From a virus (taxonomy: Duplodnaviria > Heunggongvirae > Uroviricota > Caudoviricetes), in IMG/VR virus record IMGVR_UViG_2695420859_000012: a DNA stretch of 64,000 nt; one strand, written 5' to 3'. Made by a program: the position numbers and the translations under genes. Positions 15,890-62,725 of the stretch are shown here, in pieces. The notes under the pieces are model-generated. The model saw nothing but the letters and a program-made list of their open reading frames with translations, did no database searches and was not told the origin of the DNA. The first letter of the stretch is position 1. Every line of letters begins with the position of its first letter.

Positions 15890-16987
15890 AAAATTTACAC
15901 GAATAAGCTCTGTTGATAGACGATCTCCCTTGAATTTGTGGTCAATTTCGTCTAAATCCGGTTGCTCTACGATTGATGCGATGTACGTCGAGAAACTTTC
16001 TAAGGCGTCTCGCATCTCGTCCATATAATCGTGCCGGTCGTAGACTCGATCTATCCCCTCAAGACTGTGGTTCATGATTTTGCGTGATACCTCCTGGCTT
16101 ATGCCTAATGCTGGGAAGTAACTACGCGCAGTGCGGCGCAAGTCTCGGGGTGTAAATGGCTCAAGCTCCATCAGTTCTGGTCGTTCCAGAATACGACGTA
16201 ATGCCTGGGCTATTGCCACTTTAGACATAGGAAGGTCTTTCCCGATTTTTTTATTCGAAGGCACGAGCCACTGGCTGCCTTTACCGTATTCGAACAACTC
16301 TTCAATGCATGTGCGCATTAATGAGCTTAAAGGCAGAGAATGCTCACGGGCAGATTTGTTCCTCTTGCCTTGATTCCAAACCCCACGCTTAAGATTGAAC
16401 TCACTTTTTTTAGCCCGCAGTACTTCGTCAGGTCGTCTTGCGGATACAAGACATAGCCTGGCCGCCCATTTTGTACCAGCACACACATTGAAGTAGTCCC
16501 ATATATTCCAGAACACCCATACCTCTGCGTCGGTTAGCTTCCGCTCGCGAGGTGTGGGCTTTGCGCCACCGGCAACTTTGTTAAGTGACATATCGTTTAA
16601 CGGTGACACGTCGATCATCCCCTGGAAGGCGCACCAGCTGAGGAACTGCTTCATCAGAGAGAAAACGCGGCGACCCATAACAATTTTGCCATCCAGTATT
16701 AGTGGGTTGACCAGTTGGTTCACCATGAACCTATTAATATCACTTACTTTTACATCGGCAATGTGCGGCAAAACATGTATCAAAATACAATGAACAGCGA
16801 TCTCTGGCCGACGTCTTGTTATCAGCAGAGATAAGCGAGTGAATAACATGAATGCGTCCGAGAATCTCATGTCATTGCTGACCTGGGAGATCATAACGGC
16901 CTGCATTTGAGATGCTCTTTCGAGATACTCAATCGCCTCTTTTGAGGTGTTCTCCGCAGCGCGTGCTCTGTCAAAGCTATTTTTCAT
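15884..16987 (-). CDS. Tyrosine site-specific recombinase / integrase family
   Basis: LVSARRPDEV (catalytic Arg box), RDLRRTARS (HxxR-box variant), NHSLEGIDRVYDRHDY (nucleophile Tyr region). Confidence 0.75.
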   Translation of the reverse strand: MKNSFDRARAAENTSKEAIEYLERASQMQAVMISQVSNDMRFSDAFMLFTRLSLLITRRRPEIAVHCILIHVLPHIADVKVSDINRFMVNQLVNPLILDGKIVMGRRVFSLMKQFLSWCAFQGMIDVSPLNDMSLNKVAGGAKPTPRERKLTDAEVWVFWNIWDYFNVCAGTKWAARLCLVSARRPDEVLRAKKSEFNLKRGVWNQGKRNKSAREHSLPLSSLMRTCIEELFEYGKGSQWLVPSNKKIGKDLPMSKVAIAQALRRILERPELMELEPFTPRDLRRTARSYFPALGISQEVSRKIMNHSLEGIDRVYDRHDYMDEMRDALESFSTYIASIVEQPDLDEIDHKFKGDRLSTELIRVNFS

Positions 16988-19331: not shown

Positions 19332-19362
19332 AAAAAAGGGGCCGAAGCCCCTTTGGATTTTG
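19332..19362 (+). terminator. Rho-independent terminator
   Basis: aaaaggggc-cgaa-gcccctttt then ggatttt. Confidence 0.7.
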
Positions 19363-19427: not shown

Positions 19428-19505
19428 TCACAGCGTTGAGCGGTCTGGTTTATGTTAGCGGAGTCTTAATCGAGTTGATTAAAAGGCCAAACCGCTCAAC
19501 GCTGT
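19428..19505. repeat. Long stem-loop (15-bp inverted repeat cacagcgttgagcgg / ccgctcaacgctgtg) abutting tRNA-Ser 3' end
   Basis: Perfect 15-bp arms, about 48-nt loop. Confidence 0.6.
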
Positions 19506-19507
19506 GT

Positions 19508-19594
19508 CTGGCGGAGAGTAATGGAATCGAACCATCATCGCTTGCGCAATGGGACGGTTTTCAAGACCGCTTGAGCACCATGCTCCCTACTCTC
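19508..19594 (-). tRNA. tRNA-Ser (anticodon UGA), type II, CCA encoded
   Basis: Own cloverleaf: acceptor GGAGAGU/ACUCUCC, anticodon loop CUUGAAA, long variable arm, T-loop GGTTCGATTCC. Confidence 0.7.
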
Positions 19595-19694
19595 CAGCTA
19601 TTGTGATGGTCGGTGCTGAACTCCGACACAGGGTTGTAGCAAGCCCCGCAAAGCGCGCACTACTGTAGTTGCGGCACATCAGCCTGTGCATTCA

Positions 19695-19773
19695 TCACAA
19701 CGGTAAGATCACTACCTTTCGACCAGTCATTGTGCACATGAACGACGATTAACCGTAATGATCTTATCGTTGT
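19695..19773. repeat. Stem-loop of the CACAACGGTAAGA family
   Basis: cacaacggtaagatcac pairs with atgatcttatcgttgtg. Confidence 0.55.
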
Positions 19774-19824
19774 GTTGTGAAGCCAGATGCTTATCTTCTG
19801 GTTGCTTCAAAGAGCTGCACTTCC

Positions 19825-19913
19825 TCACAACGGTAAGAGCACTGGTCTGACTCTATCGATTTACGGCCTTGTGGGTCAGTATCGCCGATTCGCCCAATGC
19901 TCTTACCTGTTGT
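19825..19913. repeat. Stem-loop of the CACAACGGTAAGA family abutting tRNA-Thr 3' end
   Basis: cacaacggtaagagca pairs with tgctcttacctgttgtg. Confidence 0.55.
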
Positions 19914-19914
19914 G

Positions 19915-19990
19915 TTGGTGCCGGTTAACGGACTTGAACCGCTGGCCATTCGCTTACAAAGCGACTGCTCTACCAACTGAGCTAAACCGG
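19915..19990 (-). tRNA. tRNA-Thr (anticodon UGU), CCA encoded
   Basis: Own cloverleaf: acceptor GCCGGUU/AACCGGC, anticodon loop UUUGUAA, T-loop GGTTCAAGTCC; 76 nt. Confidence 0.65.
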
Positions 19991-19994
19991 CAAT

Positions 19995-20081
19995 TTGGTG
20001 GGGAGTGATGGAGTCGAACCACCCGAGTCGCCATGACAGTAGATTTACAGTCTACACCGCTACCTCTACGGACTAACTCCC
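19995..20081 (-). tRNA. tRNA-Tyr (anticodon GUA), type II, CCA encoded
   Basis: Acceptor GGGGAGU/ACUCCCC, anticodon stem GUAGA/UCUAC with loop CUGUAAA, long variable arm. Confidence 0.7.
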
Positions 20082-20086
20082 CTAAA

Positions 20087-20161
20087 TTGGCGATGGTGGG
20101 TGGATTCGAACCACCGACCAGTTGGTTAACAGCCAACTGCTCTACCGCTGAGCTACACCAT
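20087..20161 (-). tRNA. tRNA-Asn (anticodon GUU), CCA encoded
   Basis: Acceptor GAUGGUG/CACCAUC, anticodon stem GUUGG/CCAAC with loop CUGUUAA, T-loop GGTTCGAATCC. Confidence 0.75.
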
Positions 20162-20430
20162 CAATTCAGCACTGCCAGTATTTATTACTCAACAGTGCCA
20201 ATCGCGACGGTTTAGTTTCTGCCAGGAAACGCACCGCTACTTGCACTTTTCGTTAGTGCCAGACGCTTTCGACTTCGCTCAATAGTAGAAGGCAAAATCT
20301 TTAAGTAGATGATGTTTCTGAGGACAGCACCTACTTTGTAATTTATACAATGTGATGTATGGAATCATTTGTTGTGAAAACAGGCACCAATGGCAACAGT
20401 GGTTAAACCTACACAACAATCCCGTCTTCA

Positions 20431-20550
20431 CAACGTTGAGGCCACTACTCCGATTGAATGTTTGCCCAACATGTTACATATCAACGCTCGCCGGTATCTC
20501 TGTGAATAGAACCTTAGAATTGATAAAAATGTAATGGCCTCAACGTTGTG
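20431..20550. repeat. Long stem-loop (cacaacgttgaggcc / ggcctcaacgttgtg)
   Basis: Perfect 15-bp inverted repeat, about 90-nt loop; shares CACAACG start with the other tRNA-region stem-loops. Confidence 0.55.
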
Positions 20551-20711
20551 TGCTGGCTAACCATACCAGCCGGGCTACGTCGCCGCTTTTTAACCCAGTA
20601 TAAACGACATAATTGAACAAAATGACGTAACAGGATGGGCGGTCAGTGGCTAAGAATCCGGGAGTCATATGGAGTTGAAAATATACCAACCGCCCATTCT
20701 GTTACTTCATC

Positions 20712-20735: not shown

Positions 20736-20940
20736 TGCGTTCTGCAATCACACTCGCTCAGTGTGTCCCATTTCGGTAACGAGGCTGGAAACTGACCTCG
20801 CTGGTGTTTGGCTTATTAGGCTACTGCCAGATAGACTTCTTCGTTTGCACTTGTATTTAAGTTCAAACAGTCGCGTCTCAACGAAAACAAAGTCATCTTA
20901 TACATAAAAGATAGGTAAGTAAATACTTATCGAAATGTTT

Positions 20941-21231
20941 TTATTCGGTTGTGACTTTTTTGATCAAGGCCACTCTACGATCAGGTGTTCTTGTGATGGT
21001 GGCAGTGAATCGTTTCGCTTGGATAGTAATGGTTTCGTTCTCATTAAGTTGCCCGTAGCGAGTTTCCACAAGGGTACCAAGACGCCACAGGCCATCATCA
21101 ATACGTTTATGGCTAGCAAATTTAATCAGCAGCAGTTTTACGACTAACTGCCCTACGTAAAAAGCGAATGCGACTCCGGCTGCCATAAAATAGGTTGCCA
21201 ACCACCATTCCCAAGAAGTTAAATTGCTCAT
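20941..21231 (-). CDS. Small membrane protein
   Basis: 96 aa with N-terminal hydrophobic segment. Confidence 0.4.
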   Translation of the reverse strand: MSNLTSWEWWLATYFMAAGVAFAFYVGQLVVKLLLIKFASHKRIDDGLWRLGTLVETRYGQLNENETITIQAKRFTATITRTPDRRVALIKKVTTE

Positions 21232-29681: not shown

Positions 29682-29797
29682 GTGGCTCACCTGGTAGGTA
29701 GTTACTTACTTATCACAATGAGCGGATGATAGCGACTGGTGGCAGTTTTTGGAAGTGGAAACGGAAGGGAGTTGTTCTGGTGGTGTCTTTTAAAAGA

Positions 29798-29852
29798 CCT
29801 GCTTCCGTATATATTTAATAAGTTACTTATTATTTATATATACAGAAGCAGG
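29798..29852. repeat. 55-bp palindromic element, copy 1
   Basis: cctgcttccgtatatatttaataagttacttattatttatatatacagaagcagg; identical to 62647-62701. Confidence 0.9.
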
Positions 29853-29963
29853 CATAACTTGTCGTCTTAGACGCCCAGAAGCTCTACACTTTGAGCCTGT
29901 TAAATTGATTAAAAACTTATGTGTAAAATAGAACGCATTAGTCAGTAGCAAAGAGATGCAATA

Positions 29964-43200: not shown

Positions 43201-44989
43201 CGCGCATAGGTTCGAGATCTGGTTCTGTAATTGTCCAGACACCGTTCAAAACAGGCGTTTCCGCTGACGACAGAGCTTTTGAAAACGTAACCTTTGTTAT
43301 GTTTTCGCCAGTTTCAAGAACATCGCGCTCAACGATTTTGCCTTCCTGATTCAATATCCGAATAAAGCTGCCGCTTTTAGCTAACGACACAGGCGCATCG
43401 AGAGTGATGCTGTTTTTGGTAAACTCCACAATTCGACCGGAGTTACGTTTACCTGCACGATATTTGTTCTGAATCAGAACGGTTTCACCGGGCATCAGAA
43501 ATGAGGCGTCTAAGCCGGCAGTAAATGTAATTACATCCGACTCCATTCTGGCGGTATACAAAAGCCACAAACCAACTCGGTGAGCCTGGCCTCGGCTTGT
43601 ACATCCAAATGCTACGACTTCTGTTTTACGCTCACCATAACGGCGCATTGCGTCCTGATCTTCAACGTACTCGATGTTTTGCTTATAACCGTCCTCCTTG
43701 TTGTTGTAGGTTACGAGCGCAACGGATGGGCGATCTTTACGCGCAGAACCTTTATAGGTAAACAGTCCATCTTTGACGTTGGAGTTGGTAAACATCATTA
43801 CTGGATCTGATGGGCTATCCTGCATGATGTTAACCATGCCACCAGCCCAAAACACCATGCCGCGGAATGCACCGGCAATATCCTGAATTAATCGGTATGC
43901 GTCTTGTCGACTGGTGATCTGCGTATTGATTGCAAAGCGTTTCTCTTTACCCCCAAAGCCATCATCGACCTCTTCGTCACAATATCGACCAATCTGGTAG
44001 AGCTGGCCGAGGTCAATCATGGATTCCGACACAAATTGCCCAAGACCATACCGAGTATTGGTAAGCAAATCGTAGAGAATCCACGCAGGGTTTGAAGAAG
44101 ACAACAGCTTAAAAGTACCGTCCCATACGCCGACATAAGTATTGGTGTATTCGTTGTAGTTTGACGGTACTCGGATTTTGATACCGCGCACCAAATACGA
44201 ACGGGAAGGCATTGTGCTACCAAACTGCTCTGAATTGACCTTCAAGCCAACAAGAGCAGAGTTAGGGTAGTTCATTGGCGTGTCGACAATCTCACCTATG
44301 GAATCAACCCATGTGTCGTTGTAGAGGTACTGGCTACTGTTATCATCTGTAAGACGAATCACCCTAACCTTGTATGCACGACCAGGCTTAGGTAGTTTCA
44401 GCTCATAGCTACGGTAATACACGCCGGTTTTCTTTGCCGTTAGCGTGATATCAACGCTTTTCTCACCTTCTGCCACTACATCAGAAAATGTTGCGTCTCC
44501 GTTGGCGATCTGGAATTTGTACTTCACCGTAGTGCCATTTGTATCGCCAGAGCTTTTATCAACGCTACGTAAAGAGGGGAATTTCATGATGACACGAACG
44601 CGATCAGCTTCATCGTTATCGATTGAAACCGTAACGTCGTGTGTTTTTTTAAGCTGAATATTTACGGACTTAGGCGTTTCGACAAAATCAAAACCAGCCA
44701 TTGGCGTCTGGTCTTGTGAGCCGTCACGAAAATCCCATGTAATACCGCTGAAGTTGGAAGAGCCATCTTCATTCAAGATCGGTAAATCGTCGATGAAGAT
44801 CGACTTTGCGCCATTTACCAGGCCACCGATAACCCCCTCGCCAAGAAGGTCGAGGATGGCTGCCATAGCACGAGAATTGACAGTATCATCAGCTTCAACC
44901 GGGGTACGGCTGGAGCTTTTACTTTTCTTGCCACCAGCACCGGCAATAAGAAGCGGTAATTTTTTCTTCTTGAACTGTTCCATGTCCAA
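40259..44989 (-). CDS. Central tail fibre / host-specificity protein (lambda gpJ-like)
   Basis: 1576 aa following gpI-like gene; contains about 33-aa tandem coiled-coil repeats. Confidence 0.75.
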   Translation of the reverse strand: MDMEQFKKKKLPLLIAGAGGKKSKSSSRTPVEADDTVNSRAMAAILDLLGEGVIGGLVNGAKSIFIDDLPILNEDGSSNFSGITWDFRDGSQDQTPMAGFDFVETPKSVNIQLKKTHDVTVSIDNDEADRVRVIMKFPSLRSVDKSSGDTNGTTVKYKFQIANGDATFSDVVAEGEKSVDITLTAKKTGVYYRSYELKLPKPGRAYKVRVIRLTDDNSSQYLYNDTWVDSIGEIVDTPMNYPNSALVGLKVNSEQFGSTMPSRSYLVRGIKIRVPSNYNEYTNTYVGVWDGTFKLLSSSNPAWILYDLLTNTRYGLGQFVSESMIDLGQLYQIGRYCDEEVDDGFGGKEKRFAINTQITSRQDAYRLIQDIAGAFRGMVFWAGGMVNIMQDSPSDPVMMFTNSNVKDGLFTYKGSARKDRPSVALVTYNNKEDGYKQNIEYVEDQDAMRRYGERKTEVVAFGCTSRGQAHRVGLWLLYTARMESDVITFTAGLDASFLMPGETVLIQNKYRAGKRNSGRIVEFTKNSITLDAPVSLAKSGSFIRILNQEGKIVERDVLETGENITKVTFSKALSSAETPVLNGVWTITEPDLEPMRVRIVNIAQGETSGSFDITAVENNPSKYEAIDNGATLIPQNTTVLDPTYSKPSNLQITEGTYLSSPGNLSVKLTATWEGKSPEYWISWRRSDENNVSNWQSARVTEEQYEIVNVAENGRYDFQLYAVSFNGKKTEIISTVYQVLGTMTPPDAPTSLTAVGDYRNVILNWVNPDSVDLDHINVYASQTNNLDTAKLIAESASTTFTHAGLGDSETWYYWVRASNKRGMLSPPNSNLGTEATTRDVLSFLAGKITSSELGQALLEDINSKASQEAVDELNEHINQSVESLEGSVNDVKEDIAELDKQFSDNLAGFEIKFNERSDALENAQTELKGEVSATIDKVNEAFEKIDATDAAIVEIENTVSEHDKALANTVEAIKAARDEAAALIAKESEARVEGDAANAKQLEVLQSTVEESSAAVEEMKKTVAEVDRASAELTTNIEALAKTNIDLALRQDEDQHKQMVNNAKIATTQKTFADDMSAMATKVEEIRVEIGEDIKASILEESTARADGDEALAKRVTQLQSKFEGDISAAISTEQEARTSADEALTTQITQLESKVSNDIVAAIKEEQEARATEDSALASQITQLQAKVDDDISAAIRSEQEARASGDSALAKQINQLQSKVDGDISAAITQEQEARASADQALSREINSLRAQTGTDIAAAVAVETKARTDADSALSTQISSLTAKANDLEASLARETTARADGDTALTKEVSSLKAQTAKDISAAVAVETQARTDADSALSSQITKLTSQYKEDIKAAVATETKTRTEQDAALATQITNLESQTAANISAAVTTETTARTQADNALSGRIDTLKAEVDGNTATIQQQATAIADTNKKVSTAWTLKMETSTSGGQKYVAGIALGIDTTGLSQFLVQADRFGLVNSVNGKITTPFVIENSIAYMNGAYIKDGTITNAKVGDLQSTNFVSGRSGWRFGKNGTLEINGNSGGNGRLVINGQRIDVYDDNNVLRVRIGLL

Positions 44990-62529: not shown

Positions 62530-62646
62530 AGATCCCTCTAAAACACACAGAGCGCGTCCATGCGCTCTAAAACAACTTGTTTACTGCATTTTCTAACCAA
62601 CTTGTTTTCTGGGTTGTTTAATTAGGTCTGGGCATGTCTTATTAAG

Positions 62647-62701
62647 CCTGCTTCCGTATATATTTAATAAGTTACTTATTATTTATATATACAGAAGCAG
62701 G
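62647..62701. repeat. 55-bp palindromic element, copy 2
   Basis: Identical to 29798-29852; between terS start and the 88-aa gene. Confidence 0.9.
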
Positions 62702-62725
62702 TCTTTAAATAAGCTCCCAGACCGA

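Follow-up and report, generated by a model that had tools for sequence, protein, structure and literature searches.

The window analyzed here, by which we mean the whole 64,000-nt stretch of viral DNA, carries a tRNA cluster interleaved with long hairpins, and the element that hosts this cluster is an SSU5-like phage-plasmid. The hairpins sit where a minus-strand operon ends in an untranslated tail; in transcript order, this operon runs from an ATP-dependent DNA ligase gene through small ORFs to hairpins H5 and H4, tRNA-Asn, tRNA-Tyr and tRNA-Thr, hairpins H3 and H2, tRNA-Ser, hairpin H1 and a terminator. As proposed in a preliminary description of this DNA, all four tRNAs lie on the minus strand and are called by ARAGORN, namely tRNA-Ser (TGA) at 19509–19595, tRNA-Thr (TGT) at 19916–19991, tRNA-Tyr (GTA) at 19996–20082 and tRNA-Asn (GTT) at 20088–20162. 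Rfam agrees, matching the last three to the tRNA model with 69.0, 41.6 and 75.5 bits, respectively, and tRNA-Ser within the tRNA clan to the tRNA-Sec model with 44.6 bits; CCA is encoded in both tRNA-Ser and tRNA-Thr. The transcription unit is closed by an intrinsic terminator on the minus strand (19335–19354), consisting of AAAGGGGCUUCGGCCCCUUU followed by a U-run, which is the only terminator-like site in the hairpin/tRNA tail (read 19354–19335), and no promoter-like site was seen inside the 1.6-kb untranslated tail. The only recombinase alongside the hairpins is a phage-integrase-family protein ~2.4 kb away, whose gene ends at 16987. Of 5426 complete E. coli genomes, 691 carry the segment with the hairpins, and PGAP leaves it without annotation. 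The 231-nt stretch from H2 to H3 is 100% identical to plasmid NZ_CP022167.1.

All five hairpins are read on the minus strand and have 20–22 paired positions per stem. H5, the first hairpin of the untranslated tail, is a diverged member (AUGAAGUAACAGAAUGGGCGGUUGG...CUGACCGCCCAUCCUGUUACGUCAU; 20622–20710, core 20627–20705) with a 21–22-bp stem and a folding z of −5.7. It is followed by H4 (CACAACGUUGAGGCCAUUAC[82 nt]GUAGUGGCCUCAACGUUGUG; 20429–20550), with a 20-bp stem that includes one U·G wobble (z −6.1), and, beyond the first three tRNAs, by H3 (CACAAC-A-GGUAAGAGCAUUGG[48 nt]CCAGUGCUCUUACCGUUGUG; 19826–19914), with 20 bp and one bulged A (z −5.5). H2 (CACAACGAUAAGAUCAUUAC[39 nt]GUAGUGAUCUUACCGUUGUG; 19696–19774) has 20 stem positions including one A·C mismatch and one U·G (z −4.5), and H1 (CACAGCGUUGAGCGGUUUGG[38 nt]CCAGACCGCUCAACGCUGUG; 19429–19506) has a 20-bp stem (z −9.9). 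Folding energies range from −32 to −48 kcal/mol, and for each hairpin none of 200 shuffles folded as well as the real sequence. Across the 64-kb window, stems of at least 19 bp enclosing 30–120 nt were limited to these hairpins and one unrelated palindrome pair (29.8 and 62.65 kb). The preliminary description had located H1–H4 to within 1–2 nt, and had underestimated their stems at 15–17 bp and overlooked H5. It had also placed hairpins directly 3′ of tRNA-Ser and tRNA-Thr, which is borne out, as H1 starts 2 nt past the CCA of tRNA-Ser and H3 starts 1 nt past that of tRNA-Thr. Its remark that the hairpins lack T-runs and are not canonical terminators is likewise correct for all of H1–H5. We set aside an identity as intrinsic terminators: no U-run follows the hairpins, and the copies in lambda and related phages are preceded by the real terminator.

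The hairpins belong to a family with the consensus CACAAC-R-GKURAG...CUYAMC-GUUGUG, or more fully a CACARC/GYUGUG base, an optional R bulge, the paired stretch G-K-U-R-A-G/C-U-Y-A-M-C and a 3′ flank of R-U-G-A-A-K. H1–H4 match the family consensus position by position, and H5 (GUAACAG...) matches it loosely; the RUGAAK flank is clear at H2 and H3 and weaker at H1 (AUAGAC) and H4 (AAGACG). In the viral and E. coli collections, other carriers are P1, D6, SSU5-like Klebsiella phage-plasmids, lambdoid prophages, lambda and prophage Qin in E. coli K-12. The family comprises at least 60 distinct stems with about 100 different interiors, which range from 7 to 130 nt, the shortest being the 7-nt loop of one D6 member. 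Among the matches listed by a two-arm pattern search of genome contigs in which complementarity was not enforced, a marginal stem was present at 1 of 120 loci, the matches being due to chance and falling in unrelated taxa. Orthologues of H4 occur in Cyrano, CMS-2020a, SSU5 and Klebsiella phage-plasmids, and when the window, Klebsiella and SSU5 orthologues are compared, the arms are 80–100% identical and the interiors 52–64%. Specifically, H1 and its Klebsiella orthologue share 100% of their arms and 58% of their interiors, and H5 is conserved in SSU5 and Klebsiella phage-plasmids with 92–95% identical arms around 52–64% identical interiors. Because the arms are conserved far above the interiors, the constrained part of these elements is the stem and not what it encloses.

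Searching the window region and six related loci against Rfam 15 gave no match at or near the gathering threshold on any hairpin, including to STnc100, YrlA, C4, DicF and ribozymes, and returned only tRNAs and weak irrelevant matches. Y-RNA/YrlA, C4 and ribozyme identities were dropped, as neither a match nor a defining feature was found. Sub-threshold matches to STnc100 fall on a module beside the hairpins in P1 and D6 and not in the window; the STnc100/Pas-sRNA lead concerns a neighboring module of P1, D6 and lambdoid phages that is absent from the window.

The strand of the family could be examined using members whose orientation was fixed independently, from adjacent tRNAs or from the H3 motif. 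On the tRNA-sense strand, 38 such unique stems contain 691 Watson-Crick pairs, 71 G·U pairs and 6 A·C pairs, and this excess of G·U over A·C indicates that the hairpins act as RNA on that strand. In an alignment of 61 distinct stems, from which the bulged base was taken out, pairing holds in 95.3% of cells vs 33–58% when the partners are slid, and 17 of the 20 stem pairs show changes on both sides, values reached by none of 500 shuffles. The pairing of the stem is under selection. The base is closed by CACAAC/GUUGUG, many stems carry a bulged purine after pair 6, and a U·G wobble is conserved at pair 17, four pairs below the top. Stem length is also confined, at 20 bp in 20, 21 bp in 7 and 22 bp in 6 of the 38 unique members. 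In 23 of these 38, the 3′ end of a tRNA (Thr, Asn or Ser) lies −2 to +2 nt from the start of the hairpin, and further family members lie directly 3′ of a terminator T-run. The earlier suggestion of a small structured RNA family is therefore apt as a description of these covarying stems (at least 60) and their ~100 interiors, but it is the stem and not the interior that is held constant.

The interior of H3 (19846–19893, minus strand) is a portable conserved module in which a covarying inner helix closes an invariant ~23-nt loop (CCACAAGnCCGUnAAUCGAyAG). It occurs in 41 viral contigs and in three different stem contexts, its carriers being lambdoid prophages, SSU5-like phage-plasmids and Klebsiella phage-plasmids, and in Klebsiella it is kept even though a 7-bp stem stands in place of the long one. 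The spacer between H5 and H4 (20551–20621, minus strand) is 83–85% identical to Klebsiella and SSU5, vs 57–61% for the next spacer, and has a conserved fold, with no covariation among 3 sequences and no Rfam match. Cutting of the stems on either side would release this spacer, which we regard as a candidate small RNA. The spacer from H3 to H2 (19775–19825, minus strand) is common to P1-like phages and a Klebsiella phage-plasmid and forms a small stem-loop. The 5′ leader of tRNA-Ser (19596–19695, minus strand) is ~95% identical to ban-operon sequence of P1 and Ro157c2, and folds no more stably than shuffles do (z +0.3).

The region as a whole is strongly mosaic. The block at 19770–20166 is 86.7% identical to Ro157c2, the part at 19770–20021 is 78% identical to P1, and 19774–19841 is 92.6% identical to Kp1825. 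Cyrano lacks 19611–19909, with the junction at a TTGTG repeat, and tRNA content differs among relatives. In P1, family hairpins precede the protein-coding genes tciABC and ban. The P1 copies are under a C1-repressed promoter, with lytic expression.

A family member from E. coli K-12 coincides with a mapped processing site. This Qin member, CCAUAAC-G-CGAAAGCGCAUGG...CCGUGCGCUUCCG-GUUGUGG, lies at 1649172–1649257 of the genome, upstream of dicF. In the account of DicF given in a preprint (10.1101/2023.04.14.536235, citing Faubladier 1990), a 190-nt DicF RNA has an RNase III-dependent 5′ end located by primer extension; the ‘813/814’ numbering appears there without its origin. If 190 nt are counted off from the dicF 3′ end as annotated (1649434), the 5′ end falls at ~1649245, inside the 3′ arm of the Qin member, a position that depends on a gel-sized length and coordinate arithmetic. 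Like the window copies, the dicF site has a 6–7-bp CAUAAC/GUUGUG base, a bulged purine, AAGCGCAUGG/CCGUGCGCUU and the same U·G wobble, and its ~22-bp stem with a 38-nt interior lies in an untranslated part of the prophage dicBF operon, beside small RNA genes. The two differ in that the Qin site flanks a small RNA, DicF, and the window copies flank tRNAs, and in that cleavage is experimentally supported at Qin whereas the role of the window copies is predicted. Qin carries two copies of the family.

Lambda also has a near-consensus member, CACAAC-A-GGUAAGAGCAUUG...CAGUGCUCUUUCC-GUUGUG, at ~44788–44862, directly after tR′ and followed by the family 3′ flank. The late leader RNA of lambda has in vivo RNase III sites, which are the subject of Daniels, Subbarao, Blattner & Lozeron (1988, Virology 167:568), and we infer that these sites lie within the lambda family hairpin. 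The lambda records J02459 and NC_001416 contain no RNase III features. Unlike H1 and H3, the lambda copy follows a terminator and not a tRNA; its expression, like that of the P1 copies, is confined to lytic growth. The hairpin region goes unmentioned in Gordon 2017.

Several known systems resemble the arrangement in the window while standing outside the family. At E. coli metY, a long hairpin begins at the tRNA CCA, and RNase III cleavage at metY-nusA ‘releases the tRNA’, as Regnier & Grunberg-Manago put it in the title of a 1989 paper (cited in PMC5371410). The metY-nusA-infB site, at a tRNA heading a polycistronic transcript, resembles the window in having the hairpin base at the CCA and a like proposed role, but it shows no sequence kinship past the first three bases and has an irregular stem of 8+10+10 bp with loops. 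The T7 early-region sites (R0.3–R1.3; cf. Dunn & Studier 1973) and the rRNA operon stems each span about two helical turns and serve as substrates of host RNase III. These, as proposed for the window, use repeated related hairpins to segment a long transcript into mature units; the T7 sites, however, have a characteristic internal loop and yield separate mRNAs, the rRNA stems are formed from distant flanks, and neither carries the CACAAC consensus. The 3′ external transcribed spacer RNAs of tRNA operons, such as the 3′ETS-leuZ sponge, are structured RNAs directly 3′ of a tRNA that arise as by-products of tRNA processing. Their release by RNase E, end at a terminator and binding to Hfq set them apart from what is proposed for the window hairpins.

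Taken with the structure of the family, these comparisons suggest that the five hairpins are probably sites at which RNase III processes the untranslated tail of the minus-strand operon. The preliminary description had offered processing signals as one of three options, and this is the one favored by the constant 20–22 bp, the tRNA-sense strand, the abutment on CCA, the Qin relative at a mapped site and the lambda late-leader copy; its second option, tRNA remnants, is not supported. The valley of RNase III takes about 22 bp of dsRNA (PMC6212723), and as the stem length of ~20–22 bp is one that the RNase III dimer accommodates, the geometry fits this enzyme. We would expect host RNase III to cut both arms of the window's own copies ~11–12 bp above the base, cut positions that are predicted here, as is their effect on tRNA maturation. 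Cuts in H5 and H4 would separate the tRNA block from the mRNA upstream, and cuts in H3 and H1 would release the last tRNA in each run from the trailer 3′ of it, which would be needed because those places lack a downstream RNase P cut. Exonucleases would then trim the remaining ~13–15 nt. Since H2, H4 and H5 have no preceding tRNA, release of tRNAs is not the whole story. Furthermore, the lower 12 bp are strongly conserved in sequence as well as in pairing, beyond the known need of RNase III, which could mean that something else reads them or that the copies share a recent ancestor.

A different assignment of roles would make the stem a scaffold for small RNAs, with the apical part as a base-pairing or decoy product and the stem serving excision and exonuclease protection. 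The roughly one hundred interiors on nearly the same stem would suit this, as would the H3 interior, with its invariant loop and covarying helix kept across three stem contexts, and the known prophage small RNAs represented by DicF and the neighboring STnc100-like element. We nevertheless consider it unlikely, given that the interiors of H1, H4 and H5 diverge like neutral-looking spacer at 52–64% identity against 80–100% for the arms, that the D6 loop has only 7 nt and that no interior matches Rfam. A related speculation, to which we give slightly more than passing weight although we still think it rather unlikely, treats the 20-bp stem as a portable RNase III ‘cassette holder’ comparable to a pri-miRNA hairpin, in which temperate enterobacterial phages would swap apical modules that RNase III would excise as small RNAs in lytic growth, with the H3 module, in a putative trans-acting role, and the conserved 76-nt H5–H4 segment among the products. 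It is also quite unlikely that the hairpins act uncleaved, as a barrier to 3′-to-5′ exonucleases or as structures that keep Rho off the 1.6-kb untranslated transcript. The tail is long and untranslated and has no internal promoter-like site, the stems are very stable, and the P1 elements precede coding genes that need read-through, but neither the constant 20–22 bp nor the conserved U·G wobble and bulge would be required for this, a hairpin on the CCA end would hinder tRNA 3′ maturation unless cut, and in Qin an RNase III-dependent end falls at the family member.

The mosaicism raises the question of DNA-level elements, either recombination sites or attC-/MITE-like elements that shuffle tRNA/RNA cassettes between phages. 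Spacers ~95% identical to P1 do alternate with hairpin bodies that differ, the Cyrano deletion joins at a TTGTG repeat, tRNA content varies and the AAC...GTT ends recall attC. Yet the 71:6 ratio of G·U over A·C on the transcribed strand points to RNA, and homologous recombination between conserved stems accounts adequately for the mosaicism. The flanks show no target-site duplications, no transposase or integron integrase lies alongside, and the P1, D6 and lambda copies have no recombinase neighbor. The core ACACAAC/GTTGTGT has one mismatch each to RYYYAAC/GTTRRRY, and the stems are nearly perfect, without attC-type extrahelical bases. We judge such a role very improbable. Degenerate tRNA genes or tRNA-like remnants are more improbable still: the hairpins do stand among tRNAs, a T-arm-like GGGUUCGAAUCCC lies inside one P1 paralogue and GGGUUCAUAUCCC-like stretches inside two others, but ARAGORN calls only the four tRNAs, the Rfam tRNA model matches no hairpin of the window, P1, D6, Ro157c2 or Klebsiella with E up to 10, and a cloverleaf is incompatible with a 20-bp closing stem around 7–130 nt. 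Most likely, therefore, the hairpins are ordinary RNA-processing signals that cut tRNAs from a long transcript.

The hairpins probably belong to a known kind of RNA-processing signal and reveal no new mechanism. This reading makes sense of some 450 nt that lack annotation in E. coli phage-plasmids of a very common class, and a single sequence family, absent from Rfam, would link the tRNA clusters found in P1-like and SSU5-like elements with two older, separate observations, namely the RNase III sites of the lambda late leader and the one upstream of dicF. The comparison further suggests that the long-standing P1 ORFs ‘plp’ and ‘upl’ come from reading the wrong strand of hairpin DNA. For phage tRNAs embedded in mRNA operons, the family provides a testable model of how their 3′ ends are formed.

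The window is from an SSU5-like phage-plasmid, and its tRNA region is 92–97% identical to that of Escherichia phages CMS-2020a and Cyrano, with Salmonella phage SSU5 a more distant relative. Across the whole 64 kb, ARAGORN called exactly four tRNA genes, all on the minus strand, Ser-tga (19509–19595), Thr-tgt (19916–19991), Tyr-gta (19996–20082) and Asn-gtt (20088–20162), the last three tightly packed with gaps of 4–5 nt; Rfam concurs, and the four tRNAs of the preliminary description therefore stand. Interleaved with them are five minus-strand hairpins, H1 (19429–19506), H2 (19696–19774), H3 (19826–19914), H4 (20429–20550) and H5 (20622–20710). The first four had been listed earlier and do exist, but their stems measure 20–22 bp rather than 15–17 bp, and the fifth, H5, is a more diverged addition to that list with a stem in the same range. 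All five fold with z-scores of −4.5 to −9.9, matched by none of 200 shuffles, and in a window-wide scan stems of such size and architecture were unique to the tRNA cluster, bar one unrelated palindrome pair near 29.8 and 62.65 kb. This nearly perfect palindrome, CCTGCTTCTGTATATAT[21]ATATATACGGAAGCAGG, occurs as two intergenic copies 32.8 kb apart (29795–29855 and 62644–62704) and may be a repeated operator, terminator or partition-type site.

H1 starts 2 nt past the CCA of tRNA-Ser and H3 1 nt past that of tRNA-Thr, directly 3′ of these genes as originally noted, and a T-run follows none of the five hairpins, which bears out the view that they are not canonical terminators. The sole terminator-like site of the region lies at 19354–19335 on the minus strand, and we found no promoter-like site inside the cluster; together with the lack of T-runs, this makes the hairpins and tRNAs look like the untranslated tail of a minus-strand operon containing an ATP-dependent DNA ligase gene. 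Upstream of the hairpins, permuted and beta tmRNA models gave weak matches (17–27 bits, far under threshold) at window 20816–20946 and at the homologous position in P1 (L002 2941–3045, overlapping the annotated ‘dicF-like region’), the P1-like Ro157c2 (L007 3176–3281), D6 (L008 3097–3270) and a further fetched locus (L005 2618–2734), which despite their consistent recurrence are probably spurious.

Comparison with the tRNA clusters of related elements showed the hairpins to be conserved, with the same kind present in every relative fetched: Cyrano, CMS-2020a, a Klebsiella phage-plasmid, SSU5, P1, Ro157c2 and D6. We oriented 38 unique members without reference to pairing, using neighboring tRNAs or a conserved interior motif, and their stems contain 691 Watson-Crick pairs, 71 G·U pairs and only 6 A·C mismatches on the tRNA-sense strand; the structure is therefore under selection on that strand, as RNA. 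Of these members, 20 have a 20-bp stem, 7 a 21-bp stem and 6 a 22-bp stem, and 23 of the 38 start within −2 to +2 nt of the 3′ end of a Thr, Asn or Ser tRNA. In a single register, 95.3% of cells are paired across 61 distinct stems, compared with 33–58% when partners are slid, a percentage that is partly built in because members were selected as stem-formers, which does not apply to the diversity of pair types. Changes occur on both sides in 17 of 20 pairs, and 0 of 500 shuffles matched the observed values; of the 61 stems, 39 have U·G at pair 17 and 26 are unpaired at pair 9. The consensus on the tRNA strand, 5′ to 3′, is CACARC-(R)-G-K-U-R-A-G ... C-U-Y-A-M-C-G-Y-U-G-U-G, and R-U-G-A-A-K usually comes next. 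Structure, strand, covariation, placement and family relationships can thus be read directly from the hairpins, for which neither an Rfam 15 family nor underlying PGAP annotation was found.

H1, H4 and H5 have orthologues in the Klebsiella phage-plasmid and in SSU5; among these and the window copies the arms are 80–100% identical whereas the interiors are 52–64% identical, no better than neighboring spacer (57–61%), marking the stem as the constrained part. The fetched loci hold about 85 stem variants and about 100 distinct interiors, ranging from 7 to ~130 nt and including the 7-nt loop of a bare D6 hairpin. The region is also mosaic: spacers 19602–19713 and 19770–20166 share 78–95% identity with P1-like phages, from which the hairpin bodies differ, and Cyrano, the closest annotated relative (L001), lacks window 19611–19909 and tRNA-Tyr (19996–20082), and with them H2, H3 and both P1-like spacers, leaving an 8-nt gap between tRNA-Ser and tRNA-Thr. 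The junction falls at a TTGTG repeat, and tRNA and hairpin content in these phage-plasmids therefore turns over by recombination at conserved stem ends. In P1 itself, the hairpins surround trnA and trnT within the ban operon, which C1 controls, and underlie two annotated opposite-strand ORFs, ‘upl’ and ‘plp’ (putative lipoprotein; L002, the reverse complement of NC_005856, 1876–2445, homologous to window 19602–20021). These ORFs consist largely of three family hairpins, plp overlaps trnT, and the window lacks the ORF while keeping the RNA features; the two are unlikely to be genes. P1, Ro157c2, D6 and lambdoid contigs also contain a module that resembles STnc100, a prophage sRNA (RF02076; 33–40 bits against a 47-bit threshold; L002 1718–1837, L007 1731–1850, L008 1794–1914, L067, and L291 19462–19585), and that begins at the conserved sequence (GGUGAAUGCGGCU) flanking a family hairpin on its 3′ side; in K-12 Qin this module lies just downstream of dicF within a 21-bp stem, and it is not present in the window.

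Family members also occur away from tRNAs. In lambdoid prophages, found through a chromosomal match, the hairpin lies between the Q antiterminator and holin genes, directly past a tR′-like terminator, and further members in viral contigs likewise follow a terminator T-run. Phage lambda carries a near-consensus copy at about nt 44788–44862, immediately past tR′ and ahead of S, unannotated among phage records, and the lambda RNase III sites described in 1988 (Daniels et al.) appear to lie within it. The E. coli K-12 Qin prophage has two members. One, ACAAUGGCUAGCAUAUUU[20]AAGUAUGCUAACCAUUGU followed by GGUGAAGUGCAG, is unannotated between cspB and essQ (L291 11168–11224, K-12 genome 1641167–1641223, minus strand); the other, with the family base, bulge and U·G wobble, lies ~125 nt upstream of dicF (1649172–1649257). 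An rnc mutant lacks the 190-nt DicF species, whose 5′ end primer extension mapped to an RNase III cut (10.1101/2023.04.14.536235, in agreement with and confirming the work of Faubladier et al. 1990). The position 190 nt before the annotated 3′ end of DicF, ~1649245, falls inside the 3′ arm ~12 nt above the base, and we found no other substantial duplex nearby. Two family members seem, then, to be sites already reported in 1988 and 1990.

RNase III dependence comes from the literature, for one family member, and we consider it reasonably likely that H1–H5 are RNase III processing sites, inferring both cleavage of the window copies and a role in tRNA maturation. The RNase III binding valley accommodates ~22 bp (PMC6212723), and in E. 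coli a long hairpin starts at the CCA of metY, the initiator tRNA gene, alike in arrangement although not in sequence, where RNase III cleavage ‘releases the tRNA’, in the words of a title (Regnier & Grunberg-Manago 1989); both fit this reading. A long lytic-phase transcript, most of it untranslated, would be split into units by RNase III cuts in the five hairpins, with the tRNA block detached from the mRNA at H5 and H4, RNase P cutting between the Asn, Tyr and Thr genes, H3 and H1 giving an endonucleolytic cut 3′ of each run's last tRNA, where there is no downstream RNase P site, and exonucleases completing the tRNA 3′ ends. Cuts in the H5 and H4 stems would also excise the 76-nt segment between them (20551–20626), which is 83–85% identical to the Klebsiella and SSU5 relatives, compared with only 57–61% for the next spacer, and keeps its fold, with no Rfam match and no covariation among three sequences. 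The 3′-terminal GUUGUG of H4 can pair instead with CACAAC at 20371–20376, forming a 14-bp hairpin (20371–20434) that is kept in SSU5, CMS-2020a and the Klebsiella phage and may compete with H4.

An uncleaved stabilizer or anti-Rho structure would leave the constant length, wobble and bulge unexplained, and degenerate tRNA remnants, proposed earlier, are not supported, as the hairpins gave no tRNA-model signal. The mosaicism is real and would suit DNA-level recombination or mobile elements, but the G·U asymmetry and the lack of duplications or a dedicated recombinase argue against them. That the stems carry functional small RNAs is plausible for H3, but for H1, H4 and H5 the low conservation of the interiors contradicts it. 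The exception is the 48-nt H3 interior (19846–19893; other copies at L005 1996–2045 and L009 4020–4068), present in 41 viral contigs and in three settings: a CACAAC stem that follows tRNA-Thr; a covarying CACAAAGGGAAGAGCG stem behind the tR′-like terminator of lambdoid prophages; and, in Klebsiella phage-plasmids, a short stem of 7 bp on the 5′ side of tRNA-Asn. It is a portable RNA module, conserved and with no Rfam family match, in which a covarying 5-bp inner helix closes an invariant ~23-nt loop, CCACAAGnCCGUnAAUCGAyAG.

That phage operons contain hairpins processed by RNase III has long been known; in the searchable literature, we found no account of the present ones as a single conserved sequence family, with members also flanking the tRNAs of P1-like and SSU5-like phage-plasmids. 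The finding is useful for annotation, and the more interesting question is that some interiors, H3 above all, may be excised as functional small RNAs.
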